Virus record (IMG/VR): IMGVR_UViG_2671181011_000016
DNA from: a virus
Lineage: Duplodnaviria > Heunggongvirae > Uroviricota > Caudoviricetes
DNA: 53,208 bases
Strand: one strand, 5' to 3'
Part shown: positions 2,686-52,978 of the stretch, piece after piece
Layout of the letters: the number at the start of each line of letters is the position of its first letter
Position numbering within the stretch: the stretch's first letter is position 1
Notes under the pieces: model-generated
Seen by the model: the letters and a program-made list of their open reading frames with translations, nothing else
The model's database searches: none
What the model was told of the DNA's origin: nothing
Program-made: the position numbers and the translations under genes

Positions 2686-2717
2686 AAGAAAACCCCGCGC
2701 GAAGCGGGGTTGTTTTT
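2684..2717. terminator. bidirectional rho-independent terminator
   Basis: A-tract, hairpin CCCCGC-GCGAA-GCGGGG (2693-2709), T-tract; sits between the convergent lipoprotein and J genes. Confidence 0.75.
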
Positions 2718-5700
2718 ATCCTGAGAATGAACCAGAACCGCGCGACACAATGACGGTCGGCGAGTTTATATATGCACCCCTACTATTTTGAGCGGATACC
2801 CTGATTTTAACCGTAACGCCCCTGCTAGTTACCGATGATGAGTGCATAACAAGGCGCTCGTCGCCATTCATAGACAGACTTTTCTCTGAACTGCCGATGA
2901 TTATCGTACAACCACCAAAACCTTTAACGTTTGCCATGACGCAAATATGTCTGCTGTGCGCTGCATTAGATGTGTCATTGTATGTGATTGTTTTTTCCAG
3001 TACTCCATCGGCTAACCTGCTGACGTCGGATCCTGTGTACATGTTCGCAACGTCACCTATAAAGGTTTTAGCCTCAAGTGAACCAGAAAATTTACCGCTA
3101 CTGGCGTGCACTTCACCTCTAACAACAACATTGTTAAATTCAGATGATCCGTCTTTTGTTATCCTCCAACCATTCGAACCAGCGACATAGTTTGATGATT
3201 TTATTTCATTAACAATTTTAGCCATAGTAATGGCTGCATCCGCAATTTTAGCTGTCCCTATTGATGCATTTTTAATAAACGCTTCTTTCACATACATTGC
3301 ACCGTTAGACACATAGAAAGGCGTTGTATATGTGCCGTTTGCTGCAGTCATCAATACGAAGCGGTCAACAAGGAAAATACACTGCGATTGAACGTTAGTA
3401 CCGTTGCCAGTCAGCCCAAGTGACATACCTGTTGCGTACTTCATGCCGTTGTTGTCGGTTGCCAGCTTGATAGAGTACGTCGCATCAACATTACCCTTGA
3501 AGTCGGTTAACGCTTTTGACGTCGTTTCTATTGCTGTTGTGTTCCCGTTAACGGTCACTGTTAGTTGATCGATCTTGCTTGATAGTGCCTCGTCAGCCGT
3601 TGCCATAGCCTGTGACCATTCTGTAATGCTTGAGTTTACAGAATCGAAAGACGCTGAGATCTGGCCGAATTTTTCCGCGCTTGATGCCTCATGCGTAGAA
3701 AGCGCCGTTGATACCTCAGACACCTTCGAGTTTATCGTGCTGGTAAGCGATGAGTTAAGGCTACTTATCGCGTCAGTGCGTGCCTTCGTTTCGTCTGCAA
3801 TTGCCTTGTCAATACGGGTCACGTTGCTTGTAACTTTGCCATCAAGGGTTGAAATTGACGCATTCACGCCGCTGATGGCTTGTGCTCTGGCACTGGCCTC
3901 GTCAGCAATTGCCTGGTCCAGTCTGCTAACTTCGGATTCAGTGTTGCTTTCAAGCGTGTTGATGCTTGCGTTCACACCGCTGATAGCCTCACTTCTTGCG
4001 CTGGTTTCGTCAGCGATTGCCTGGTCTAAGCGCTTAACGCTGGCGGCGGTTTTCTTGTCGAGCGCTGAAATGCTTGCGTTAACGTCGCTTACCGCCTCGC
4101 TGCGTGCGCTGGTTTCGTCAGCGATGGCCTTGTCAAGTCGTGAAACGCTGGCGTTTGTGTTACTTTCGAGCGTTGTTAAATCAGCTTTGACCTCTGTTAT
4201 TGCGTCGCTTCTTGCCTGCGTTTCGTCAGATATTGCCTTATCGAGTCTGCTCACGCTGGCGTCGGTTTTGCTTTCAAGATTGCTTATTGAGGCATTAACG
4301 CCGCTGATTGCCTGCGCACGGGCGCTTGATTCGTCAGCGATTGCTTGATCAAGGCGGTTCACGCTGGCGTCAGTTTTCTTGTCAAGATCAGCGATCGATG
4401 CGTTCACGTTATTAATTGCTTCTGCGCGGGCGCTTGATTCGTCTGCCACTGCGCGTTCCACGCTGGAGATCTGACCCTTAAGGTTGGAATCCATCGTGTT
4501 CATTTCTGCCGTGATGGTTTTCAGCGATTCAGCCGTGGCCCGCTTCTCTTCGGCAATAACGTTGTCGATGCGGTCAATCTGCGCGTTTGTTTCTGATTGC
4601 CCTTTCTTGTACTGTGCAGTGAGCGTAACCCGCGTGTTGGTCTGCGCGAGAGAGTTATTAATCAGCGCCAAAGATGCGTTTTGCAGGCTTGCTTTTGCTT
4701 GCGCCAGTTCGCTGTCGATTCTTTCGCTGGATACCTCTAGCGAGTCAATCCTTACCTCATGTTGCCCAATACCATCGGTGTTTTCACCAACCTTTTTATA
4801 AAGATCTTCCGTCTCTTTTTTCAGCGTGTCAGTGTCAGCTTTTATTTCACCTGTTTCTGTGATTAAGCTGTCAGTGTCAGTCCTCAATTCGTCAGTGATG
4901 TTTGTCAGGTTGTCAGTTGCAGTTTTTAGGTTGTCAGTAGCGTTTTTAAGGTCATTTGTGGCGCTTTCGATAAGGTCGGCACGGTCGCCAAGATCTTTAA
5001 TGTCGCCAATCATGTCCTTGAACTGTTCTGACTCCATGACATCCTTCATCACGTAGTCGCTGATTTCGTCGAAGTTTTCAGTCGGTTTTCCTGATGCCTC
5101 AACGAAGTCTGACACACCGAAAGCGTTACGCGTGCGCACATAAACGTAATATTTATGGCCCGTGTTCATGCCGCCGAAAGTCCATTGGTAGCCGCGCCCG
5201 GTGAATTGCGCCAAAGTTGTTACTTTTGACGGGTCAGTGATCTGATTTTCACCTGAGTAGTAAAACTCATATGCTGTATCAGTTGTCAGGGTTGTTTTGC
5301 TGATCGGATACACTGTTGCCTGGAAAACGCCAGGAACCCAATTAACACCAATCGGGGCGGCTGGCGCACCAATGACCAGATCCACAATACTTTCCGCACC
5401 CTTCATGCCAGTGTCATTACGCCCGCGAATACCAAGCGTGTAGCTGCCAGCGTCGAGGCCATAAAAATCATAGCGGTAGTTCGTGGTTTCATCAGTTGCC
5501 ACTACACGCCCATCGGCGTTATATACGCGAATTTCAAAGGTCAGGCGATGCGTTGTTGTCTGTGTTTCCCACGTTGCGCGACATTGAACAGTTTCAGAAC
5601 CAACATTTAACACCTTCAGGTTTTCGATGTTCGGCACGCGGAAGTGATTAAGCGTGTCGTTGTTTACCTCGAAGATTGCGCCTTCATCAACTACAGCCTG

Positions 5701-7482
5701 TTTGTGTGGATCGTGCTGTGCAGCCTCGATGGTGTACACGCTGTTATTTTCGGTTTCTGCTACGCTAGTGATTCGACACAGAACAGGTTTTGCAGATTCA
5801 GTAGACACGGCGAATACGGTTCCGTTGCGGATCCATGCTGGCGCTTCCGCAAGGGTAATATTGTTTCCGTTAACCCCAGTGATCTGATGTTTTTTGAACT
5901 TGCCGTCGCTGTCCAGTAAGCTGATAGTGTCGCCAGCCGCCACCAGGTCAGAATCAACCTTGTCTACAGTTATCACCTTCCCGTTATTCGCAACGATGCG
6001 ACCGCCCAAACGAGCGCCAGCGCGGTTATTGTCGAGTATCTCGATAATATCCCCTGGCGTGAAGTGAATTGCGTCACGGGCCATTTTAAACGTGAATTTT
6101 GAGGGTTCGCGTTTTGCTGTTTCTATCAGCCATTTGCCAGCGCGGTACGCCTGCCCGCGTGACGTGCAACCGAAAGCCTCCAACGTGGTTTCGTTGTAAC
6201 CATCGCGGGCGATCAGTTCGTCATCTGCCACGTATTCTTTTGATTGTTCCCAACCGTTTTCCGGGTCAGTCCATGACACGATCACGGCGTTGTAAGATTC
6301 TGCGCGGGCGATACTTGAACGAGTAAACGCACCATCAACGACATTAGCATTTGTGATGGTGGCAATTGGATCCTGCGGCGCATCAATCATCACAGTAAGG
6401 CGCTGCCCGTCCCATAACGCGATACCACGGAACATACCTGCAATGTTGTCCAGCAAGTCGCGGGCGCTCATTTGCTCCGTGATGTAAGCGTTAAGCGTCA
6501 TGCGTGGTTCAAGGCCACCGTAACCGTCGTTCACCAACTGGTCGCAGTATTGAGAAAGCGTATACAGTGCGCCATCATCAACGTCGATGTAACCAGCGTG
6601 GCGGGCAAGCCCGAAGCGTTCATTTTTCACCAGATACCGGAAAAGCCATGCAGGGTTATTGGTGTATGCCTTTTTAAAGCCACCAAGCCATAAACCTGAG
6701 TACGTGCGCGTTTCCGGGTCGTAGTTATCAGGCACGTCAACAATCAGGCCGCGCATGTGATAAGTACGTGTCGGCGTGTCAGTATACTGATCGTGGTCAA
6801 TTACCGCGCCTGCTACAGCGGTGTGAGGATAAGATAAATTATCGTCGATTATCTCGCTGTAACTGCTCCACCTGGTGTCGTTGTGAAGTAGATCGCCTGT
6901 GCTGTCTGGCGTTACGCGACGAACGCGAATATCAAACGGTTTTTCATCCGGCGCTTTGATGATGTGCGCTTCGAGGTACTCACCGCTTTGTTTACCCGGG
7001 CCGATGTGAATATCTTTAACCAGTGACCACGTTGTTGAAGATGAAGGCTTAACGTCAACCATCAACGTAACGGATGTATTGTATTGATTGCCCTTATCAT
7101 CTGACTGAACCAGAGAATCAACGCCAAGATTCAGCCTTACGCGGTTAACGTTTGGATCTGAAACGGTCCTGATTATTGGCGTATCGTGAGTCACTTTTGC
7201 GTTGACAATAACGGTTGATTCAATGGCGTTGAAGCCATTGATTGGTGACTGGTCAGCCGTACCATTACGCCACGCCACACTAACGCCGGGGACTGATGTA
7301 CTGCCGTCGCTACCAGTGATAGGCGTGTCATTAAGCATTACGCTGTTTAATGGCGCTTTCTGGTTTACAGGGCCGTATATTGGGCCTTCGCTGAGAATGT
7401 CCAAAACACGATAAAACTGTTTGTGGAACAGGTTATCGTTTAATAGTGTTGGTGTTTTGGCTTTGCCGCCGCCGCTACTCAT
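2716..7482 (-). CDS. J: tail tip attachment / host specificity protein, lambda J-like, with expanded coiled-coil repeat region
   Basis: 1588 aa; N-terminal half aligns by eye with lambda gpJ (ILSEGPI.GPV, PFDIRVRR.TPDST, TLNAYITEQ, EAFGCTSRGQAYRAGKWL); C-terminal part also J-like around the repeat insertion. Confidence 0.85.
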   Translation of the reverse strand: MSSGGGKAKTPTLLNDNLFHKQFYRVLDILSEGPIYGPVNQKAPLNSVMLNDTPITGSDGSTSVPGVSVAWRNGTADQSPINGFNAIESTVIVNAKVTHDTPIIRTVSDPNVNRVRLNLGVDSLVQSDDKGNQYNTSVTLMVDVKPSSSTTWSLVKDIHIGPGKQSGEYLEAHIIKAPDEKPFDIRVRRVTPDSTGDLLHNDTRWSSYSEIIDDNLSYPHTAVAGAVIDHDQYTDTPTRTYHMRGLIVDVPDNYDPETRTYSGLWLGGFKKAYTNNPAWLFRYLVKNERFGLARHAGYIDVDDGALYTLSQYCDQLVNDGYGGLEPRMTLNAYITEQMSARDLLDNIAGMFRGIALWDGQRLTVMIDAPQDPIATITNANVVDGAFTRSSIARAESYNAVIVSWTDPENGWEQSKEYVADDELIARDGYNETTLEAFGCTSRGQAYRAGKWLIETAKREPSKFTFKMARDAIHFTPGDIIEILDNNRAGARLGGRIVANNGKVITVDKVDSDLVAAGDTISLLDSDGKFKKHQITGVNGNNITLAEAPAWIRNGTVFAVSTESAKPVLCRITSVAETENNSVYTIEAAQHDPHKQAVVDEGAIFEVNNDTLNHFRVPNIENLKVLNVGSETVQCRATWETQTTTHRLTFEIRVYNADGRVVATDETTNYRYDFYGLDAGSYTLGIRGRNDTGMKGAESIVDLVIGAPAAPIGVNWVPGVFQATVYPISKTTLTTDTAYEFYYSGENQITDPSKVTTLAQFTGRGYQWTFGGMNTGHKYYVYVRTRNAFGVSDFVEASGKPTENFDEISDYVMKDVMESEQFKDMIGDIKDLGDRADLIESATNDLKNATDNLKTATDNLTNITDELRTDTDSLITETGEIKADTDTLKKETEDLYKKVGENTDGIGQHEVRIDSLEVSSERIDSELAQAKASLQNASLALINNSLAQTNTRVTLTAQYKKGQSETNAQIDRIDNVIAEEKRATAESLKTITAEMNTMDSNLKGQISSVERAVADESSARAEAINNVNASIADLDKKTDASVNRLDQAIADESSARAQAISGVNASISNLESKTDASVSRLDKAISDETQARSDAITEVKADLTTLESNTNASVSRLDKAIADETSARSEAVSDVNASISALDKKTAASVKRLDQAIADETSARSEAISGVNASINTLESNTESEVSRLDQAIADEASARAQAISGVNASISTLDGKVTSNVTRIDKAIADETKARTDAISSLNSSLTSTINSKVSEVSTALSTHEASSAEKFGQISASFDSVNSSITEWSQAMATADEALSSKIDQLTVTVNGNTTAIETTSKALTDFKGNVDATYSIKLATDNNGMKYATGMSLGLTGNGTNVQSQCIFLVDRFVLMTAANGTYTTPFYVSNGAMYVKEAFIKNASIGTAKIADAAITMAKIVNEIKSSNYVAGSNGWRITKDGSSEFNNVVVRGEVHASSGKFSGSLEAKTFIGDVANMYTGSDVSRLADGVLEKTITYNDTSNAAHSRHICVMANVKGFGGCTIIIGSSEKSLSMNGDERLVMHSSSVTSRGVTVKIRVSAQNSRGAYINSPTVIVSRGSGSFSG
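3760..4460 (-). repeat. in-frame tandem repeats (about 7 copies of a ~105-bp / 35-aa unit) inside J
   Basis: Protein shows repeated units SVSRLD(K/Q)AIADE(T/S)SARSEAISGVNASI...; the antisense ORF track shows matching periodic LALVSSAIAWS units; boundaries approximate. Confidence 0.7.
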
Positions 7483-8026: not shown

Positions 8027-8700
8027 TTGTCAGATCTCCATATTGAATTGGTCTGTCGAACATACGCGGGCCGCATTTGCTCGCGGCGGCTTAACAGTCC
8101 GGCATTGTCATGATGCAAAACAGTGTTATCGCCCAGGTAAATCATCGCGTGACATGGGTCAGCGCCTTTAAACGGCTGACGGATAATCACATCACCAGGC
8201 TGAATGCTTTTCGCGTCAACCATGAAAAACCCGTTCAATGGCAGGTTTTTTATGTACAGGTTTTCCCCACGCAGCCACCACCCATCGTGGCGCTCAAAGT
8301 CCGGTAGATCCACGCCGCACAGGTGATAGGCATCACGGAAAAGCGAATAGCAATCTGTTTTCCCGTGCTCAAATTTACGGCCCAACAGGTGCGCCACCGG
8401 GCGGAATTTTCTAACCCTGCCACCGGAACACAAATACCACGGCAGGCCGGAAATAACCTGCTGTTGTCGATCCCGCGCTGACAATACCAATGAATCATTA
8501 GTATGTGAGTGGAAAACGGCTGTTATAACACCCAATTCGTCAGCTTTGATATAATCGTCAGGCGAGATTTTAAAGCTGTTGTGCGGCGTTTCAGACACGT
8601 TAGCGCACGGGTAAAAATAATCGTTATCTATCACCAGCCCGCACACTTCCTCGCGCGGGTGGGCTGCCGCATAGCGAATCATTTTATCTTCAAGTGCCAT
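7969..8700 (-). CDS. K: tail assembly protein, lambda K-like (JAMM/MPN plus NlpC/P60 domains)
   Basis: 243 aa; JAMM-like HSH..D motif (AVFHSHTNDS) and C-terminal Cys-containing NlpC/P60-like part; position between L and I. Confidence 0.7.
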   Translation of the reverse strand: MALEDKMIRYAAAHPREEVCGLVIDNDYFYPCANVSETPHNSFKISPDDYIKADELGVITAVFHSHTNDSLVLSARDRQQQVISGLPWYLCSGGRVRKFRPVAHLLGRKFEHGKTDCYSLFRDAYHLCGVDLPDFERHDGWWLRGENLYIKNLPLNGFFMVDAKSIQPGDVIIRQPFKGADPCHAMIYLGDNTVLHHDNAGLLSRREQMRPAYVRQTNSIWRSDKCSSLDLRAIFEDITAKCV

Positions 8701-9407: not shown

Positions 9408-9460
9408 TTTATCACCTTGTCATTTTGTGATCTCAATCACGCTAAATCATGCCAAAACGG

Positions 9461-11649: not shown

Positions 11650-11735
11650 GATTCCCCCTATAAGTTACATATTGCATACATCTTTACGCGCTTCTACGCG
11701 AAAAATGAGAAATTCATCACAAGAATTATAACCAG

Positions 11736-11777
11736 TTTACAAAATGGCTTCACATAGGGCGTGACAAGATGTATATA
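11736..11777 (+). promoter_or_regulatory. sigma70-like promoter of moron cassette B with upstream TTTACAAAATGG motif
   Basis: motif 11736-11747, -35 TTCACA (11749-11754), 17-bp spacer, -10 TATATA (11772-11777). Confidence 0.6.
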
Positions 11778-30864: not shown

Positions 30865-30908
30865 TATATAACAAAACGGCACTGCCGTAACAATGCCATT
30901 TTGTATAC
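30865..30908 (-). promoter_or_regulatory. sigma70-like promoter with upstream GTATACAAAATGG motif
   Basis: minus strand: motif (30896-30908), -35 TTGTTA, 17-bp spacer, -10 TATATA (30865-30870). Confidence 0.55.
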
Positions 30909-30916
30909 TTTGTGAT

Positions 30917-31740
30917 TCAGATCACGTTATTATCACAAGCGAAAGCCTCGCAACTTTCAGAACAACTACCTGAATCAAACTCTTTCTTGTTAATAATGCT
31001 GCTGCGTATCTCTTCTGTTTCCTCCAGCCTGAACATTGCTATTACGTCCTGCAATGCCATTTTGTTGCGATACATTTCCGGCTTACCTTCCTTGCAATCA
31101 TGTTCTGCAATGCAACTACAAAACTGGTCATATAGTTCAGGTTCATCCCTTGCTGCCAATGCCAACTTCTTGTTGCTCTTCTTAATGCAGAAAACACAAT
31201 TACCAAGATGTTCGGGGATCTCTAAATCAAATGACTGCCCTGACCACCAATCAATAATATCCTGCTTCTCAAAGTCACTTATATCTGCCAGATAGTGAAA
31301 ACCCTCCCTTTCGTGTAGTCTGCGTGGCTCATCTGCCCTAATACCTAACCAGCGTTCATAATTGCCTTTGCCATAGTGTTCATCACAATACTTTTCAAAA
31401 GGTAGTTGTTTCATCCTGTGAGTACAGAATGCCCCGCCGATATAAGGATGGCCATAATGTTCCAGGATTCTCCGCCACGGAACAAGGTCACATCTTATAT
31501 CATCAATACCAATGATCTCGTAACTGAATTTACCGTATTTAATTGCAGGAGGAACGCAGCGGAGGCAAGTTATTTTAATGTTAAAATGTGAGGATAAATT
31601 CTTTATGAACTCGTATGTTTTAGGGTGTTCACCCCTGTATCCATGAAGATAACCTCTGCGTCAGGGTGAATTTTCAATACCTCTAGAGTCATGCAAGCAG
31701 AAGTCCTTCCACCACTGAATGATATTACTTGATGTTTCAT
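30917..31740 (-). pseudogene. PAPS reductase-like (PP-loop ATPase family) gene disrupted by a 1-nt frameshift
   Basis: N-terminal frame MKHQVISFSGGRTSA...FMDTG stops after 45 codons; reading continues in another frame (EHPKTYEFIKN... to 30917); shift lies at a G4 run (31633-31636); a fifth G would restore FMDTGGEHPKTYEF. Confidence 0.65.
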
Positions 31741-36604: not shown

Positions 36605-36781
36605 TTATTTTTGATTCTCTGTTTCGTTCAGCCTTTCGGCGTGTCCGGCCCTTAGCCAATGTTCTAAGCATTCGTTGCACTCGTTACAGCCTCCTTTCTT
36701 CGTGCTGCATACATTGCACATTGCACGCATGACGCTCTCTCGTTCATAGTCGTCATGCCATTGGTAATCATCAAAAGGCAT
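36605..36781 (-). CDS. small Cys-rich (zinc-ribbon-like) protein
   Basis: 58 aa MPFDDYQWHDDYERESVMRAMCNVCSTKKGGCNECNECLEHWL...; RBS AAGGAGAG; not in the supplied ORF track (below cutoff). Confidence 0.45.
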   Translation of the reverse strand: MPFDDYQWHDDYERESVMRAMCNVCSTKKGGCNECNECLEHWLRAGHAERLNETENQK

Positions 36782-36940
36782 AATGCTCTCTCCTTTTCAG
36801 GTGATTTCTACGCATTTCAGCGCTGCCGGATTTTTAAAGAGCATTTCGTTTGCTTGAAGTATACAAAATGGATACACCAGAACAAGGCAAAAAGCGCCAT
36901 TATGTGATCTGTATCACGCAATGACGCCATTATGTAAACT

Positions 36941-37723
36941 TCAGTCCGGCAAAACGCGGTTGAGCGTAGTACGATTGATGGCCCGGTCATTAGCCATGAA
37001 TACAGCACGGGCAAAGCCGCGCGGCGTTAGTGAGCGGATCATCTTTGTTCGTTTCGTCCGGCCTCCTGTTTTTGCCCACCCCGGGTTATCACCAGAGTTA
37101 AGATCTACAGGCCTGAAAAGTGGCTGCTTAAATCCATTACCGCACCAAATACAAGTTTTCTTTGTATACGCGTCGCGCGCCGGGTAAACATCCGGGAAAG
37201 CAGGATGTTTGTCGTCTTCCGGCAGGTAGCCACCGTAATCGCACGGGTTGAAGATAAAATCAGGTTTGCGCCATAGCGTTGACAGTGCTCCCACCGGATT
37301 TTCCACCATCCACGGCACGTTGTGCATATCAGCCAGTTTTTCTACCAGTTTTGCGCTATTCGCCGCCTTCACCTGGAAGTCAGGATCTTTTTCCCGTTTG
37401 TCAGCGAACCAGCGAGCGCCAGACACTGCGAGATCGTCGCACGGCGGGAAGCCCAGGATAATATCAGGATCCGGGTAAACAGATAATTCAGGCGAGAACA
37501 TCACCAGGAAGTGACTGTCAATCCATACGTTAACATATTCAATATTCGGATGAATGATTTTAACGCCTTCATAATCGCCGTGATTTGCGCCGTCATAGTT
37601 GAAGCAATAGCACTTATATCCCGCTTCCGCCCAGTCTTTAACGGCGTAGCCGCTGCCGTCGTACAGCGACCACACAACCCAACTTCTAAGCCAATTATTT
37701 AACCAGTGTTTAGCCTTGCTCAT
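36941..37723 (-). CDS. DNA (cytosine-5)-methyltransferase-like protein with atypical motif IV
   Basis: 260 aa; motif I-like (LYDGSGYA), motif IV-like GFPPCDD (PC followed by D, not Q), motif VI-like MVENPVG; short for a canonical C5-MTase. Confidence 0.45.
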   Translation of the reverse strand: MSKAKHWLNNWLRSWVVWSLYDGSGYAVKDWAEAGYKCYCFNYDGANHGDYEGVKIIHPNIEYVNVWIDSHFLVMFSPELSVYPDPDIILGFPPCDDLAVSGARWFADKREKDPDFQVKAANSAKLVEKLADMHNVPWMVENPVGALSTLWRKPDFIFNPCDYGGYLPEDDKHPAFPDVYPARDAYTKKTCIWCGNGFKQPLFRPVDLNSGDNPGWAKTGGRTKRTKMIRSLTPRGFARAVFMANDRAINRTTLNRVLPD

Positions 37724-38265
37724 TTTCTGCCCTCAAACGTGAAATAGCGGCGCATGATGATAGTGATCACCGTTACCGCTGCCATTTTTGAGATGAATTG
37801 CATCGCTGATATTTCCGGCATAAACGCCATAAACGATAGCGTCGGGAAAATTAACGCATCCCCGATGGCTGAAGCTATATTTGCAGGCCAGCGCTTCGAG
37901 TCGAAATCACCAGGTAAAACCCGGTAAACACCGCCAGATATAAGCGCACCGGAAACAACCGCGACGAATGACGCTATTGCTACCATTCCTGCATCGTAAT
38001 TTATTAGCACCGTGATTGCGCCCGCGGCGGCGCATGTTGTAGCCGACCATTTCAGGCCGCCGTCATATAACAGGAAGTCGCGGATCATCATATTGACACA
38101 CACAGCGGCTACCGTAGTGATCGGAATTACCCACGGGCCGCAATGGTTAACAATAAGGTTGATGATCACGAAAACGGCGACATAAACGCAGGCCAATAAC
38201 CTGTCAATTGTCACCTTTTTCATTTGGGTCATACCTCTTATCGCGAATAGCTTCAGATCTGTCAA
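37720..38265 (-). CDS. integral membrane protein
   Basis: 181 aa (start uncertain); several hydrophobic segments. Confidence 0.5.
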   Translation of the reverse strand: MTDLKLFAIRGMTQMKKVTIDRLLACVYVAVFVIINLIVNHCGPWVIPITTVAAVCVNMMIRDFLLYDGGLKWSATTCAAAGAITVLINYDAGMVAIASFVAVVSGALISGGVYRVLPGDFDSKRWPANIASAIGDALIFPTLSFMAFMPEISAMQFISKMAAVTVITIIMRRYFTFEGRK

Positions 38266-38719
38266 AACTCAAATCAAGCCGAGTTGAAATACAACCGCAT
38301 TGAGGGTTAAGCATTGAAGGGGGCAACCCCTTACAGCTTGTTATTGCTCCGTCATTTATTATTCCATCATTAATATTGGCGGCAGTGAACTGATTTTTCT
38401 TTAGCTCTTCATCGCGATCATTTAATATTTGCTCAGCTTTTAGTGCGTTGTAGCTGATTAGGTCAACCAAAGTGTCAGCAGGATCGCTACCATTAGCCAA
38501 AATGGCCTCTAAACGCGCCTCCTTGAGACAAATCAACAGATCCCATACATCAAGCGGGGTTAAATTTGCGCCCTTCTTAGCGTTATATATAGTGGCTATT
38601 TTTGGCGCTGATTTTTCTTCTTTTCTGTCGTAGCCGTTTTGTTTACCTCTTTGCTCAATTGTTTCCGCTGCAATTCGTAATAAATCAGCCGCACTAGTCA
38701 TTTTCTGCACCTCTTGCAT
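38204..38719 (-). CDS. hypothetical protein
   Basis: 171 aa ORF; no recognisable domain. Confidence 0.45.
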   Translation of the reverse strand: MQEVQKMTSAADLLRIAAETIEQRGKQNGYDRKEEKSAPKIATIYNAKKGANLTPLDVWDLLICLKEARLEAILANGSDPADTLVDLISYNALKAEQILNDRDEELKKNQFTAANINDGIINDGAITSCKGLPPSMLNPQCGCISTRLDLSFDRSEAIRDKRYDPNEKGDN

Positions 38720-39233
38720 ATATCTCTTTACGCGTTATGTGTGTGAAAATACATTCATGTCTGCACCGTGGATGCCAGATCAAAAACAAGCTGCCTTTGT
38801 TGTTTCCGCTTACCGGCTTACCCGTCGCAGCATTGATAAACGCCAGCCTCCCGCGCGTGATTAATCGGCACTCGTTTGCCGTCTCAACGCCGTTCATGAA
38901 CCAGCTAACAGAAATGTCAGCGGGCAACAACATTACGCAACCAATGTGATTTCGTTGATGTTCAAGCGCCGCTTTATCAACGAATGGCCCTGGGTTTGAG
39001 TATGGCGGATTCATCCAGACATATTCACCAGGCATTGCCACCGCTCCCCACGGATAATGCAGCGTGTTCATTTCTTCGGTTATATATCGCGGGATTAATG
39101 CGTTTGCCTTGTTTGCCGCAACGTCAGCGACAAATTCAAATTCACGATCCATTCCACTGAAAACTGGTTTAGGCGTCTGCCACAGGTCTTTTATTTCCTT
39201 CGGCGTGTTGCTGCCTCCGAAATCATTTTTCAT
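38694..39233 (-). CDS. dam: DNA N6-adenine methyltransferase (phage Dam family)
   Basis: 179 aa from MKNDFGGSNTPKE; catalytic NPPY motif (VWMNPPYS). Confidence 0.7.
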   Translation of the reverse strand: MKNDFGGSNTPKEIKDLWQTPKPVFSGMDREFEFVADVAANKANALIPRYITEEMNTLHYPWGAVAMPGEYVWMNPPYSNPGPFVDKAALEHQRNHIGCVMLLPADISVSWFMNGVETANECRLITRGRLAFINAATGKPVSGNNKGSLFLIWHPRCRHECIFTHITRKEIYARGAEND

Positions 39234-39250
39234 TATTACCCCCCCCCACA

Positions 39251-39496
39251 CTAAAAATAATCCTGGTCAGTCCCCCATCGGTTATTGAGATACCCCACCA
39301 ACCACACAAAACGCTCAATGCTGATTAGCGGGGCAACCTTGCGATAATGCTTTTCTAATATCAGCCGCGTAGCTTTATCGCTGTAGCCGTTTCTTTCTAC
39401 CTCTGCTTTGCAGGCAGAAAGCGCCGCACGCGCGGCAGTTTTTACGGCGTTGAATTGCGGCTCTGACAGGTTGAATAAAGCCATTTTATAAATCAT
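39251..39496 (-). CDS. hypothetical protein
   Basis: 81 aa ORF. Confidence 0.4.
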   Translation of the reverse strand: MIYKMALFNLSEPQFNAVKTAARAALSACKAEVERNGYSDKATRLILEKHYRKVAPLISIERFVWLVGYLNNRWGTDQDYF

Positions 39497-40416: not shown

Positions 40417-40515
40417 CTTGTTTCCCTCCGTACCGTAAACCTTTTGATTTAAGTTTACAAAACGGATTCGCGATCACAGTACAAAATGTATAGCTATGTG
40501 ATCGCAATCACAATA

Positions 40516-41136
40516 TTAATGAAGTACGCGCTTTTCAGGTTCAGGCATTGGCTGTGACATTTTTCGTGCTTCATTAAGCATAGATATAGCCGCCTGCACG
40601 CCTAAATCATTTGCACGCATGTTAATACCAACCATTTCGCCATAAAACAACGGCATGATCGCCATTACGTCTTCCTCGTTGTGCCCTTCATCAATGCACT
40701 TCTGTAACGCTTTGGCCTCAAATATTTTCTTCATTACGCCGCGCACAGAATAAAGTGCAGCGCTACCCATATGGTTTTCGTCTAACGGGAAGATAACAGC
40801 ACTGCCGAACGCCAGCGGATCAAGCTCTTCCGGCACTGGCACGCGACCATATTCTTCTTCCATGCGTTTCACAAAAGTGAGGCAGAAGACATAACGAGCT
40901 ACAGCCGTTTTTTCTTCATTATCAAAAGACACATAGTCGCGCATCGACGCTTCCATCACAATATCAGCAACCTGTAACGCCAGATTCAAATCAGCGTCAT
41001 ACTTGCCAGCTTCCATATCTTTCAATACTTCGTGATAATCTTTAATTTCAACTTCATGAAAACTTGCGTCTTCAGTGTAGCGAGTGATTAACATGCCTTC
41101 GCTGCCGAGTGAATAAGCCGTTTTGATGTCTTTCAT
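40516..41136 (-). CDS. hypothetical protein
   Basis: 206 aa ORF; no recognisable domain. Confidence 0.5.
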   Translation of the reverse strand: MKDIKTAYSLGSEGMLITRYTEDASFHEVEIKDYHEVLKDMEAGKYDADLNLALQVADIVMEASMRDYVSFDNEEKTAVARYVFCLTFVKRMEEEYGRVPVPEELDPLAFGSAVIFPLDENHMGSAALYSVRGVMKKIFEAKALQKCIDEGHNEEDVMAIMPLFYGEMVGINMRANDLGVQAAISMLNEARKMSQPMPEPEKRVLH

Positions 41137-44281: not shown

Positions 44282-44535
44282 GCTTAACATCTTTCAACTA
44301 ATCCCGCAATCATCGCCGTTCCCGGCGTGACCTTGCTCACTCCAAGCAAGCTGACTCGTCGCCTTGCGTGCGGTTTCGTGGGGGATGTAACGCTTTAAAC
44401 ACCCCATGCGCCTTGTTATCAGTGCCGCTTTCGGTCCCCCATCGGGGAGTTACTCCACGGTTGACAAGGTGTTAAGCCTGATTTTTAAAGTGCCAGGAAG
44501 TTGCTTTTGTTACCTGCGCCCTTCCTTTGATTCGC

Positions 44536-44578
44536 AATATACGCCCCGTAAAACACCGAGTCAATCCATTTTGTATAC
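44536..44578 (-). promoter_or_regulatory. candidate PL promoter with upstream GTATACAAAATGG motif
   Basis: minus strand: motif (44566-44578), -35 TTGACT, 17-bp spacer, -10 TATATT (44536-44541). Confidence 0.55.
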
Positions 44579-45335: not shown

Positions 45336-45641
45336 GTCGCTACCCTATAACCTCAAAAAGTTTGATGCAAGTCACAAAACGTGTATTTTAAGCCTTGATC
45401 TTAAAATTCCATTTTGTAAACTTGCAGACAAGGTAAGGCCATACTTGCAAAGACGCAAGGAAAAAGATAACGGAAGGCACAAAAAGGCACTTACCTTAAG
45501 CTCTTTAAAAATCCGGTGTCGCTGCGAAGCGAAAAACAAATATCACGCAACGGCGGGATCTGTTCAGCGGTCAGTCACTGCTATCTAATGCTAATGGGAT
45601 GCCCGCCCGCGCGTTCACTCTAACCATAGGAGAAAAACAAG
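45336..45641. promoter_or_regulatory. immunity-region intergenic segment (divergent promoters / operators)
   Basis: 306 bp between divergent cI and rightward operon; CTTGC..GCAAG inverted repeats (e.g. CTTGCAAAGACGCAAG); motif copy TTTACAAAATGG at 45409-45420 (minus); exact -10/-35 boxes not resolved. Confidence 0.5.
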
Positions 45642-48102: not shown

Positions 48103-49221
48103 ATGTCGCAAAGAAAAATCAGCGATGAGCAATTGATCGCTGAATACAACAACGGTTTAACGTACAAACAGATTGCTGAGAAGTACGGCATGTCTAAACG
48201 CAATGTCGAGCGCCTGGGCGCAAAACTGGCGAAACGTGGTTTATTATCAACACGCCGCGCGCCTGGTTTTGGCGTCAATGGCGAGTCGTTGCTAGTCGAT
48301 AAAAACGGCAATGTGATCATGCGCTGGATTAAAACAGCCCGTGACCGCGACGAAATGGAACAGTTAATGGAAGCGGCCCGCGACGCTTTCATGGATGAAA
48401 TACCACGCGCGGAGGCTGTGCCAGTGCCTGAAATTGATTTTCAAAAAAGCCTGGCCCTTTATCCGGTGTTTGATCTGCATATCGGGGCGCTTGCTCATAA
48501 AGCTGAATGCGGAGAGAGCTACGATACTGGGATCGCTGAGCGCGTGTTGAATGACTTCTTTGACTACGCCGTTGGCGCTGCTCCGATGTCTGAAAAAGCC
48601 GTTTTGCTTCTCGGTGGCGACCTGCTTCATTCTGACGGTATGGTCCCGGTGACGCCAATAAGCGGGCACATTCTTGATCAAGATAGTCGCTACGCAAAAC
48701 TTGTTTATGTGGCGATCAGGTCTGTCCGGCGGGCGGTAGGTAAAATGTTGTTAAATCATAAGGATGTTGAAATCCAGGTGTTATCAGGCAATCACGATCA
48801 GTCAGGCATGATTTGGCTACGTGCGGCGCTGGCGGCTTTTTACGAAGATGAACCGCGCGTGACGGTTGATGTGTCACCTGCTATCGTCCACCACACACAG
48901 TACGGCAAAACATTCCTTGCTTACCACCACGGGCACACTATCAAAAAGCCGGAAAATTTATTGTCTGCTTGCGTAGCTGACTGGCGTGAGGATTTTGGCA
49001 AGTCTGCGGCGGTTTACGCTCATTGCGGGCACTGGCACCATCAACGGCTGATTGAATCATCGCTAGGCGTTGTTGAGTATCACGGCACATTAGCGGGTAA
49101 AGACGCTTATTCAACTAATGGCGGCTGGCGGTCGCGGCGTCTGGCGGCGGTGGTTATTTACAGCCCGGATCATGGGGAGATCGGGCGCTTTGTTTATTAC
49201 CCTGAATTTTCCATTTTGTAA
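48103..49221 (+). CDS. HTH-domain protein fused to a calcineurin-like metallophosphoesterase domain
   Basis: 372 aa from MSQRKISDEQ (RBS GGAGGG); N-terminal HTH (LTYKQIAEKYGMSKRNVERL); phosphoesterase motifs DLHIG, GGDLLH, GNHD, HHGH. Confidence 0.55.
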   Translation: MSQRKISDEQLIAEYNNGLTYKQIAEKYGMSKRNVERLGAKLAKRGLLSTRRAPGFGVNGESLLVDKNGNVIMRWIKTARDRDEMEQLMEAARDAFMDEIPRAEAVPVPEIDFQKSLALYPVFDLHIGALAHKAECGESYDTGIAERVLNDFFDYAVGAAPMSEKAVLLLGGDLLHSDGMVPVTPISGHILDQDSRYAKLVYVAIRSVRRAVGKMLLNHKDVEIQVLSGNHDQSGMIWLRAALAAFYEDEPRVTVDVSPAIVHHTQYGKTFLAYHHGHTIKKPENLLSACVADWREDFGKSAAVYAHCGHWHHQRLIESSLGVVEYHGTLAGKDAYSTNGGWRSRRLAAVVIYSPDHGEIGRFVYYPEFSIL

Positions 49222-49239
49222 ACCGGAGGCAATAACATA

Positions 49240-52318: not shown

Positions 52319-52978
52319 ATGAATAAACTTAAAGTAATTGGCGTGATTAGCCATCGTACTAACCCTGAGTGTTACCCATCGTTTGAGGTAACAACATGCC
52401 GCACAGAATATAATTTTGGATCATGCTATTTAATGGGCATTCGCGCTGACACTGGCGGCACTTATTCTGTTATGGCTGCAAGCTGGAAATTTGAAAAATA
52501 CGATGATTTATCGAATAAGGATGATGACGGCATGAATAAAGAAAGTGAAGTTGTTGATGAATTAATCGAAGACGAACGCCGTGACTGCGAAACGAAACAA
52601 GAAAAAACGGAATGGAAGCCAGGAGAAAAGCCGCCGTGCGGCGTGTGGCTTGAATGTTATTATCCTGATGGTTATCTAGTTGGGATTGTAATGTTTAAAT
52701 TTGTCGGTGATAAATTCGGTGTGTACACTGAAAAAGGCAGTAAACAGCAAGAACATACTATTGATTGGGGTTTTTGTAATTATTTTTTATATGTTGACCC
52801 GAAAGAAAAAGCACTTGCTGAAATCGCGTTTGCACTTGCTATCAAAGTTATGGGTGAAGACGCGGCAAAAGAGATTGACTTTAACCATGACAATGATTTT
52901 TCGTGCGATTATCGCAATATGGCGCAAGCTATTATTGATGGATGTATCGGACACGTTGAATACACGGGGAAAAGATAA
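52319..52978 (+). CDS. hypothetical protein
   Basis: 219 aa ORF; no recognisable domain. Confidence 0.5.
   Translation: MNKLKVIGVISHRTNPECYPSFEVTTCRTEYNFGSCYLMGIRADTGGTYSVMAASWKFEKYDDLSNKDDDGMNKESEVVDELIEDERRDCETKQEKTEWKPGEKPPCGVWLECYYPDGYLVGIVMFKFVGDKFGVYTEKGSKQQEHTIDWGFCNYFLYVDPKEKALAEIAFALAIKVMGEDAAKEIDFNHDNDFSCDYRNMAQAIIDGCIGHVEYTGKR

Follow-up and report, generated by a model that had tools for sequence, protein, structure and literature searches.

In the window, the whole stretch of 53,208 nucleotides analysed here, the genes read from 39233 to 36941 form an ordinary early-gene cassette of the mEp021 type in which both DNA methyltransferases belong to known phage families, and its sole surprise is a strongly conserved YhhQ-like gene that stands without the DNA-modifying partner gene found in other phages. 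The window is that of a mEp021-group (mEpimmI) temperate coliphage: nucleotide identity of the region is 88-96% with mEp554, mEp010, mEp021 and MagusPhagus, and 35 E. coli prophages match it. All cassette genes are carried by the minus strand, in the order Dam, DUF6378, VUT and Dcm-like, and they are four overlapping genes, not the three of an earlier account made from the letters alone (the sequence-only reading). Start and stop codons overlap along the cassette, and purifying selection acts on all four genes (dN/dS, nine genomes). We consider it likely that the region is explained as an accessory cassette of a mEp021-type early operon, comprising plain m6A and 5mC methylases, a VUT protein and a spacer holding t4 and nutR2. 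As the accessory part of the early rightward operon, its four genes would be translationally coupled, transcription of the cassette would end at the intrinsic terminator t4, and nutR2 would let the N-like antiterminator Gp17 extend transcription into ninF-ninG-rusA-Q.

This layout departs from the single module, starting at 36605, that the sequence-only reading had proposed. The left end of that interval is a separate NinF-like gene, the first gene past the nut site, and lies outside the methylase cassette (Table 1). Because the coding strand is the minus strand, the spacer at 36782-36940, formerly placed upstream of the module, comes after the 260-aa gene in reading direction and precedes the NinF-like gene. 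Likewise, a multi-TM ORF does lie between the two methylases, but the DUF6378 gene separates it from Dam, and the methylases are therefore not its direct neighbours on both sides, as the word flanking had implied.

Table 1. Features of the cassette and of the adjoining spacer, in window coordinates
Feature	Position	Strand	Evidence or detail
NinF-like 58-aa Cys-rich protein	36605..36781	-	PHROG 30170 E=4e-44; mEp021 annotation 'putative NinF'
nutR2-like site (predicted)	36810..36843	-	boxA TGCTCTTTAAAAA 36831-36843; boxB-like hairpin GCGCUGAAAUGCGU 36810-36823
Candidate weak sigma-70 promoter	36858..36885	-	TTGTTC 36880-36885, 16 nt, TATACT 36858-36863
Exact 13-mer copy CCATTTTGTATAC	36859-36871	-	inside candidate weak sigma-70 promoter
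Intrinsic terminator, t4 of mEp021 group (predicted)	36888..36928	-	folding; TERM_4 at same place in mEp021 annotation
13-mer copy CCATTATGTAAAC, 1 mismatch	36927..36939	+	exact in 8 relatives
Small TRD-less C5-cytosine DNA methyltransferase (phage 'Dcm-like'), 260 aa	36941..37723	-	PHROG 757
Dcm-like RSLTPRG	37016-37036	-	C-terminal motif
Dcm-like KK 188-189	within 37154-37162	-	Lys188, Lys189
Dcm-like ENP (motif VI-like)	37295-37303	-	Glu141
Dcm-like motif IV FPPCD	37436-37450	-	Cys95
Dcm-like motif I DGSG	37649-37660	-	YDGSG context
Short VUT/YhhQ-family membrane protein, 167 aa, six hydrophobic segments	37720..38223	-	tblastn, hydropathy
DUF6378 protein, 165 aa	38204..38701 (ORF to 38719)	-	PF19905 32 bits vs cut-off 27.1
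Phage-type N6-adenine DNA methyltransferase (Dam), 179 aa	38694..39233	-	PF05869, TIGR01712, NPPY
Dam NPPY	39000-39011	-	aa 75-78

The Dam ORF extends mechanically over 38694-39251, with a GTG at 39251, and the ATG at 39233 is the likely start. That its product is a Dam-family N6-adenine methyltransferase with an NPPY motif, as had been proposed, is borne out by full-length matches above the cut-offs of Pfam PF05869 (E=3.7e-52, 176.9 bits against 28.1) and of the NCBIfam equivalog TIGR01712 (142 bits against 97.05). The protein is assigned to PHROG 111, receives from PADLOC the label 'orphan methyltransferase' only (3.4e-26), and has a dN/dS of 0.063 (nine genomes). It would make N6-methyladenine in a SAM-dependent reaction, and its target, judged from the family, is probably GATC. 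A non-specific enzyme of the Hia5 type was also considered and found no support, Hia5 being related to the classical Dam enzymes (M.EcoKDam, DpnM and T4 Dam).

The 260-aa protein, described earlier as C5-methyltransferase-like, does carry a motif I-like DGSG, the FPPCD of motif IV with its PC, and a motif VI-like ENP, whose third position is P, not V. It matches PHROG 757 over residues 3-253 (E=7.3e-88), a Dcm-like family found in 1517 phage records, and is 62% identical over the full core (E=1e-108) to the Dcm of Bas06 KarlJaspers, encoded by a 711-bp gene, and 57% identical to the Dcm-like protein of Bas01. The K42 orthologue of the Bas06 enzyme gives 5mC in msDNA by LC-MS, in E. coli MG1655, in a manner dependent on C82, E128, K175 and K176 (mutated together) and on a CCTGG site, and it triggers retron Ec86; its CCWGG specificity is deduced from one msDNA site, not mapped genome-wide. 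In the window protein the equivalent residues are C95, E141, K188 and K189, with identical spacing, and C95, E141 and K188, together with G23, S24, P93, P94 and N142, are invariant in 28 family sequences. Judged by sequence, the 260-aa protein and the Ec86-triggering phage Dcm are members of the same family.

Relation to the better-known C5-methyltransferases is more distant. The 260-aa protein was unmatched by Pfam PF00145 even at E<=10, and two relatives, P0059 and P0115, pass that profile (24.7 and 25.4 bits against 22) over motifs I-IV only. Neither a recognisable QxRxR motif VIII, in whose place RDAYxKKT is found, nor a target-recognition domain was seen in the protein, and about 30 residues lie between the last core strand and the single RSLTPRG, with no separate motifs IX and X. 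Searching the PDB with a C-terminal profile, in order to assign RSLTPRG to motif IX or to motif X, returned chance matches only; the single sequence found nothing there, the family profile found weak N-terminal matches to DNMT3B and HaeIII only, and PADLOC gave a marginal match to 'orphan methyltransferase' (E=0.007). Structure prediction, which had been suggested as a check, returned for the 260-aa protein a predicted C5-cytosine methyltransferase fold that is DNMT3-like. The Dcm-like protein would be a minimal SAM-dependent C5-cytosine methyltransferase resembling the DNMT3 catalytic domain, in which Cys95 would act as the nucleophile on C6 and Glu141 as the proton donor to N3, as in the standard mechanism, Lys188 and Lys189 would replace the usual arginines of motif VIII, and the product would be plain 5-methylcytosine. 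The sequence specificity of this enzyme, like that of Dam, is one that we infer.

The spacer past the Dcm-like gene had been interpreted as a cluster of a recurrent promoter motif. The motif, CCATTTTGTAWAC, is real, with 23 matches at two or fewer mismatches where 3.7 are expected. As for the three copies or variants claimed in the spacer, one is exact and another, on the opposite strand, has a single mismatch, but the third (36897-36909) matches only weakly and makes up one arm of the terminator hairpin; the CCATTATGTAAAC copy also overlaps the foot of this hairpin. In the literature this region appears as predicted terminator t4 together with nutR2, and what is left of the promoter cluster is a possible weak promoter between them, where CTTGTT and the 13-mer are conserved in nine genomes; the 13-mer may be part of such a promoter. 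In t4, a 15-bp interrupted hairpin (36893-36928) capped by the palindrome GTGATACAGATCAC precedes a U5 tract; the predicted RNA fold has an energy of -19.2 kcal/mol (z=-3.8), and among nine genomes the arms are conserved and the loop is variable. Consensus scans of the region for sigma-70 promoters and terminators called neither the candidate promoter nor the t4 hairpin. The published description of mEp021 has nutR2 directly after the gene for the cytosine methylase (Valencia-Toxqui et al. 2023; PMC11893012). In the window the site was identified by its position and its boxA/boxB pattern; it is 100% conserved in nine genomes, its boxB hairpin is supported by folding, and it has AGCTCTTTAAAAATCCGG in common with the nutL-like site. 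A boxA and a boxB hairpin at the published position make it a nutR2-like predicted antitermination site.

Early in lytic growth, the two methylases would maintain full methylation of the replicating phage DNA irrespective of the Dam/Dcm status of the host, and this would shield the DNA against restriction enzymes blocked by those marks, at the price of making it visible to defences that sense methylation, retron Ec86 among them. Protection against restriction by self-methylation, the function favoured by the sequence-only reading, is a reasonable role for them. Its benefit is not obvious in the usual hosts, because E. coli K-12 already has Dam and Dcm, and in the window neither GATC nor CCWGG shows depletion or enrichment, so that these site statistics are uninformative on restriction selection. 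It seems unlikely that the methylases serve regulation instead, for example through Dam methylation of GATC in regulatory palindromes or packaging sites, with effects on expression timing or the stabilisation of lysogeny. Phage Dam enzymes with regulatory roles are indeed known, in pac cleavage of P1 and in lysogeny of 933W, and a palindrome GTGAT-N4-ATCAC is present in five exact copies against 0.05 expected, with GATC in all four of its intergenic copies. However, the copy at 36904-36917 has lost its GATC in two of nine relatives and is well enough explained as the tip of the terminator hairpin.

Beside the two plain methylases of the accessory cassette that we favour, the membrane protein was rightly described as multi-TM, since it has six segments (the mEp021 annotation also gives a membrane protein with 6 TM), but it is not a generic one: by sequence comparison it is a short VUT/YhhQ-family homologue. 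The stop codon of its gene overlaps the start of the Dcm-like gene (ATGA). With tblastn it was matched to the VUT proteins of phages Opt-719 (5.8e-28) and PEAT2 (5.7e-16), and the latter, gp18, passes Pfam Vut_1 (38.1 bits against 27.2). The window protein itself stays below threshold, with no match to Vut_1 (PF02592) at E<=0.1, and P0269, which is 97% identical to it, reached 11.7 bits (E=0.33) in an alignment over positions 6-149 of 152. Its dN/dS of 0.028 is the lowest of the cassette, and its amino-acid identity is 97.6-99.4%, against 66% to 98% for the neighbouring genes.

The DUF6378 gene, absent from the sequence-only reading, has a start that overlaps the Dam stop and a dN/dS of 0.21. 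In alignment, its N-terminal ~95 aa correspond to a conserved helical domain and its C-terminus is variable. The AF2 model (pLDDT 45.8) was unusable for a fold search, the PDB sequence search was uninformative, and a literature search yielded no functional data. A MazG/PRA-PH gene adjoins P0279, a distant VUT homologue; prompted by this neighbour, DUF6378 was compared with MazG as a possible relative and the idea was rejected (hhalign probability 2.7%, 12 columns), and no tie of DUF6378 to MazG or to any enzyme was detectable.

E. coli YhhQ is described as a transporter of preQ0/preQ1 or another 7-deazapurine (Zallot et al. 2017, as cited in a later paper), and the VUT protein would most likely be a 7-deazapurine (preQ0/preQ1-type) importer, a substrate assigned from family membership alone. 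VUT homologues in six other phage lineages directly adjoin a DpdA-like gene, VUT is under tighter constraint than any other gene of the present cassette, and phages with YhhQ or preQ0 genes but no DpdA are on record (Hutinet et al. 2019). These points would suit a cassette that, in whole or at least in its VUT and DUF6378 genes, is a 7-deazapurine pathway, with preQ0/preQ1 imported by VUT and then either 7-deazaguanine put in phage DNA by an unrecognised enzyme or the queuosine of host tRNA boosted. We find this account quite unlikely, for besides the family-based substrate and the DUF6378 protein with no detectable tie to an enzyme, tblastn with six phage DpdA-like proteins and an HMM built from them detected no DpdA homologue in either the window or MagusPhagus, the best E-values (0.02-0.7) all falling in structural genes. 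Likewise, no PDB relatives were found for two mid-size uncharacterised proteins (52319-52978 and 40516-41136) taken as candidates for a hidden DpdA, and the ORFs scanned yielded no genes for preQ0 synthesis. For a VUT protein without DpdA, the simplest guess would be supply of the host tRNA queuosine pathway. It is distinctly improbable that this gene, under very strong purifying selection without DpdA, serves some unrecognised purpose for which 7-deazapurines are imported; if true, this could mean a new base-exchange route into phage DNA, or a deliberate reprogramming of host tRNA queuosine in lytic growth.

The sequence-only reading had also read the PCD of motif IV as a hint of non-canonical chemistry, a view that finds no support. 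Motif IV of the Dcm-like family is PPC[T/D], the residue after the catalytic Cys being T in most of the family and switching between T and D among near relatives, and the SAM user DNMT3 has PCN, so PCD does not point to unusual chemistry. It is extremely improbable that the 260-aa protein performs a non-canonical cytosine modification, such as Cx-SAM carboxymethylation as in CmoX or another C5 adduct: a D, not Q, follows the catalytic Cys, the SPPC of CmoX with Arg for the motif X Asn recalls the FPPC seen here and the invariant Arg230 of a C-terminal motif, and Cx-SAM is made by E. coli, but the 62%-identical K42/Bas06 orthologue, with FPPCT, gives 5mC, and no CmoA or CmoY-type ligase was found among the ORFs scanned. 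The Cx-SAM carboxymethyltransferase reading itself was ruled out because that orthologue makes 5mC.

The cassette with its two plain methylases leaves current understanding unchanged, and its value lies in annotation. For mEp021-group phages, the label 'putative membrane protein' or 'hypothetical protein' is to be replaced by VUT/YhhQ homologue, and their 'putative DNA cytosine methyltransferase' joins the family of the retron Ec86-triggering phage Dcm. Given this membership, Ec86 should sense phages of the mEp021 type, a common group in the human gut. As far as the literature was searched, we found no genome-wide specificity maps of minimal TRD-less C5-methylases.

Compared with known systems, the window Dam shares with the PF05869/TIGR01712 phage family the full-length match, NPPY and a nin-like region setting in a temperate coliphage, with no notable difference. 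The spacer agrees with nutR2/t4 of mEp021 in its position 3' of the cytosine-methylase gene, in the place of TERM_4 and in a boxA/boxB-like sequence identical in nine genomes. The VUT protein resembles the DpdA-adjacent phage YhhQ/VUT proteins (PEAT2 gp18-gp19, Opt-719 gp66-gp67, LHE71, Phc, RCIP0319 and AB3P2) in its 30-36% identity over ~90% of the length, its size class (~155-170 aa) and its multi-TM character; unlike those, it has no DpdA adjoining it, nor was one found elsewhere in the window, and it is preceded by DUF6378 and followed by the Dcm-like gene. The enzyme CmoX, a phage DNA cytosine C5-carboxymethyltransferase (PDB 8yf3), differs in that no CmoA/CmoY partner genes were found among the ORFs scanned in the window, and its signature Arg could not be aligned confidently. 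With the catalytic domains of DNMT3A/DNMT3B and with M.HhaI and other PF00145 enzymes, the window protein has in common the GxG of motif I, the PC of motif IV and the Glu of motif VI, but it has ENP, not ENV, lacks a PF00145 match, a QxRxR motif VIII and a target-recognition domain, and ends soon after RSLTPRG, possibly the motif IX or X of canonical C5-methyltransferases. Closest of all is the K42/KarlJaspers (Bas06) Dcm, with 62% core identity, the same Cys/Glu/Lys-Lys spacing, a DNMT3-like predicted fold, PHROG 757 and the same length class (236 aa against 260 aa). Activity was measured for the K42 enzyme, whereas the window protein is known from sequence, has FPPCD instead of FPPCT and is longer by ~13 residues at the N-terminus and ~15 at the C-terminus; its gene sits beside VUT in the early operon of a temperate phage, in contrast to that of K42, a virulent phage of the Drexlerviridae.

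The 36605-39251 region shares 88-96% nucleotide identity with phages mEp554, mEp010, mEp021, mEp515, mEp044, mEp013 and MagusPhagus, and of 5426 complete E. coli genomes, 35 carry matching prophages. The phage relatives of the window are the mEpimmI phages, temperate coliphages of human faecal origin that depend on Nus and are not lambdoid (PMC11893012); their genomes are roughly as long as the 53.2-kb window. Every gene of the region lies on the minus strand, and the 159-nt spacer, which the sequence-only reading had placed upstream of a module of two methyltransferases and a membrane protein, is actually downstream of the cassette. Those three genes are present, but a fourth, encoding a DUF6378 protein, had been overlooked. 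The start and stop codons of the four genes overlap, as would be expected of one translationally coupled unit. The DUF6378 protein has about 95 nearly invariant N-terminal residues, predicted to be helical, and a variable C-terminus; its identity falls to 66% in MagusPhagus, its structure prediction was too poor to use (pLDDT 45.8), and none of the sequence methods found a function for it. Elsewhere in the window, a 1588-aa ORF (2716-7482, minus), which by its position in MagusPhagus is a central tail fibre J-like gene, contains five tandem 108-nt repeats (3751-4446; 36-aa units, ~65-70% identical), and a 219-aa ORF of the replication/nin region (52319-52978, plus) had zero matches in Pfam, PHROG and PDB.

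Features of the methyltransferase cassette, the adjoining spacer and related sites
Feature	Coordinates	Strand	Remark
Dam	39233-38694	-	first in transcription order
DUF6378 protein	38701-38204	-	second
Membrane protein (VUT/YhhQ-like)	38223-37720	-	third
260-aa protein (Dcm-like)	37723-36941	-	fourth
Spacer, 159 nt	36782-36940	-	between 260-aa gene and NinF-like gene
Terminator hairpin (t4), 15 bp + U5	36928-36888	-	fold -19.2 kcal/mol, z=-3.8
13-mer CCATTTTGTATAC, exact copy	36871-36859	-	after t4 hairpin
boxA TGCTCTTTAAAAA	36843-36831	-	after 13-mer
Small hairpin, A-rich loop	36823-36810	-	after boxA
NinF-like gene	36781-36605	-	after spacer; then NinG, RusA, Q
nutL-like site, boxA-like, sharing AGCTCTTTAAAAATCCGG	45499-45516	+	position corresponds to published nutL
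boxA-like GGCACTTTAAAAA	44482-44494	-	downstream of PR-like promoter; position corresponds to published nutR1
Exact 13-mer copies	11735-11747(-), 30896-30908(+), 36859-36871(-), 44566-44578(+), 45409-45421(+), 49211-49223(+)
GTGAT-N4-ATCAC palindromes	8323-8336, 9427-9440, 30912-30925, 36904-36917, 40498-40511		exact copies

Both methyltransferases recognized earlier were recovered by database searches. By its sequence, Dam is evidently an ordinary phage Dam, with a full-length match to Pfam PF05869 (E=3.7e-52), a score of 142 bits (cut-off 97) for the NCBIfam equivalog TIGR01712 "phage N-6-adenine-methyltransferase", and the NPPY motif at residues 75-78. The 260-aa protein has no Pfam match at all, and two of its relatives pass the PF00145 threshold, over motifs I-IV only; it matches PHROG 757 "DNA methyltransferase" with E=7e-88. 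This family comprises >7700 database clusters (1261 at the 50% identity level), and members, 210-260 aa long, are carried by 1517 phage records, mostly of Escherichia, Klebsiella and Salmonella. In a 28-member alignment G23, S24, P93-P94-C95, E141-N142-P143, W151-R152, K188 and I229 to R235, among others, are invariant. According to a preprint, phage K42, which shares 95.4% genome identity with KarlJaspers (Bas06), carries a 711-bp "dcm" whose loss lets the phage escape retron Ec86, a methylation-sensing defence, and whose expression raises 5mC in msDNA as measured by LC-MS; the rise is abolished in a combined C82A, E128A, K175A, K176A mutant, and a CCTGG site in the msDNA is required for the effect (10.1101/2023.08.16.553469). 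The KarlJaspers genome likewise holds a 711-bp gene, for a "Dcm-like C5 cytosine methyltransferase", to which the 260-aa protein is 62% identical over the whole core (E=1e-108), and C95, E141, K188 and K189 correspond to the four mutated K42 residues with identical spacing. This identity and the matching residues indicate that the 260-aa protein belongs to an experimentally characterized family of small phage 5mC methyltransferases.

It is plausible that the two methylases modify the phage's own DNA to evade restriction; a regulatory role is less likely. Counts of GATC (236) and CCWGG (129) agree with those predicted from shorter words, and triggering of retron Ec86 is a documented cost of the Dcm family (10.1101/2023.08.16.553469).

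The organization of the spacer is already described for the mEp021 phage group. Its terminator hairpin coincides in position with TERM_4 of the mEp021 annotation, where the terminator t4 of the group was predicted (PMC11893012). Its boxA and small hairpin would be the nutR2 site, which lies downstream of the methylase gene in that paper. A comparison of nine genomes showed conservation of the two arms of the hairpin, of the 13-mer and of the whole segment between boxA and the start of NinF; the t4 hairpin loop and the stretch past the U tract vary. Of the three promoter-motif copies previously proposed here, one is exact; another lies on the other strand at the hairpin foot and the last, a weak variant, is a hairpin arm.

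The recurrence of this motif held up, the 13-mer CCATTTTGTAWAC having 23 matches in the window at <=2 mismatches against 3.7 expected. Its role may be that of a promoter element or of a site bound by a phage regulator; the sequence facts fit both equally. A promoter would accord with the -10-like TAWACT within it, with the finding that eight of the 11 best copies precede an ORF of their own strand by 3-220 nt, and with the spacer copy, readable as TTGTTC, 16 nt and TATACT with CTTGTT conserved, where a promoter immediately before a nut site would be sensible. However, the -35 of that candidate is poor and the scan tool made no call there; the 49211 copy has no space for a leader and ribosome-binding site, since only 16 nt separate its end from the start codon of the helicase gene; and at the PR-like promoter the 13-mer has the opposite orientation and directly adjoins a perfect TTGACT-N17-TATATT (~44525-44555, minus). 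A separate palindrome, GTGAT-N4-ATCAC, has five exact copies against 0.05 expected and looks like an operator; four are intergenic, each within ~100 nt of a 13-mer and each holding GATC, and the 36904 copy doubles as the tip of the t4 hairpin.

The membrane protein, labelled "putative membrane protein" or "hypothetical" in public records, had been read simply as a multi-TM protein, and its six hydrophobic segments agree with this, but its identity can be made more specific. A translated search of phage genomes returned the mEp group at 94-99% identity and 14 further records at 28-36%, several annotated "VUT family protein". It matches Opt-719 gp66 (5.8e-28) and PEAT2 gp18 (5.7e-16), the latter passing Pfam Vut_1 (38.1 bits vs 27.2), and a 97%-identical relative aligns end to end with Vut_1, weakly. 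Together with the hydrophobic segments, these matches make it a short YhhQ/VUT family member. Its gene is under the tightest constraint in the cassette (dN/dS across nine genomes: VUT 0.028, Dam 0.063, Dcm-like 0.11, DUF6378 0.21; 97.6-99.4% amino acid identity among the homologues in genomes L001, L002 and L014-L019). In a large protein collection the only distant homologue was P0279 (36% identity), encoded in the 5001-6198 region of the 95-kb Logan contig ERR11478511_293 (L020) between a DNA ligase gene and one for a MazG/PRA-PH-type pyrophosphohydrolase, DpdA not being the following gene; this locus has only the short, non-significant stretch "LTPLD" in common with DUF6378. In PEAT2, Opt-719, LHE71, Phc, RCIP0319 and AB3P2 the VUT gene directly adjoins a gene of one DpdA-like family (mutual E-values 1e-39 to 1e-151), whereas no homologue of these six DpdA proteins occurs in the window or in MagusPhagus, which makes the VUT gene here a small, real oddity. 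The characterized E. coli member is a preQ0 importer, according to work cited by Hutinet et al. (2019), and queuosine-precursor import has been proposed for other DpdA-less phages (Hutinet et al. 2019). On the simplest reading, the protein would supply the tRNA pathway of the host with imported queuosine precursors; that it serves a DNA-modification route of unrecognized kind is unlikely.

The residue D following the catalytic Cys of the 260-aa protein had been taken as a possible pointer to non-canonical activity, which is not supported. Motif IV reads FPPC in the family, followed by T in most members, and D is confined to the clade of the 260-aa protein and one other sequence. This residue is non-diagnostic, because near relatives alternate between T and D, the active K42/Bas06 enzyme has T and DNMT3B has N; PCD thus gives no ground for expecting unusual chemistry. 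A Cx-SAM-using cytosine modifier was weighed in view of the close structural match to CmoX, but it is highly improbable, as the orthologue yields 5mC and no CmoA/CmoY genes were found among the ORFs scanned. The hallmark of CmoX is SPPC with Arg in place of the motif X Asn; RSLTPRG is invariant in the phage family and could correspond to motif IX or motif X. The K42 Dcm model was aligned with DNMT3A by its authors (10.1101/2023.08.16.553469), and the CCWGG specificity of that enzyme is deduced from a single site. Textbook C5 methyltransferases differ from the 260-aa protein in having a QxRxR motif VIII and a target-recognition domain, and both methylases of the cassette are additional members of already known phage families.
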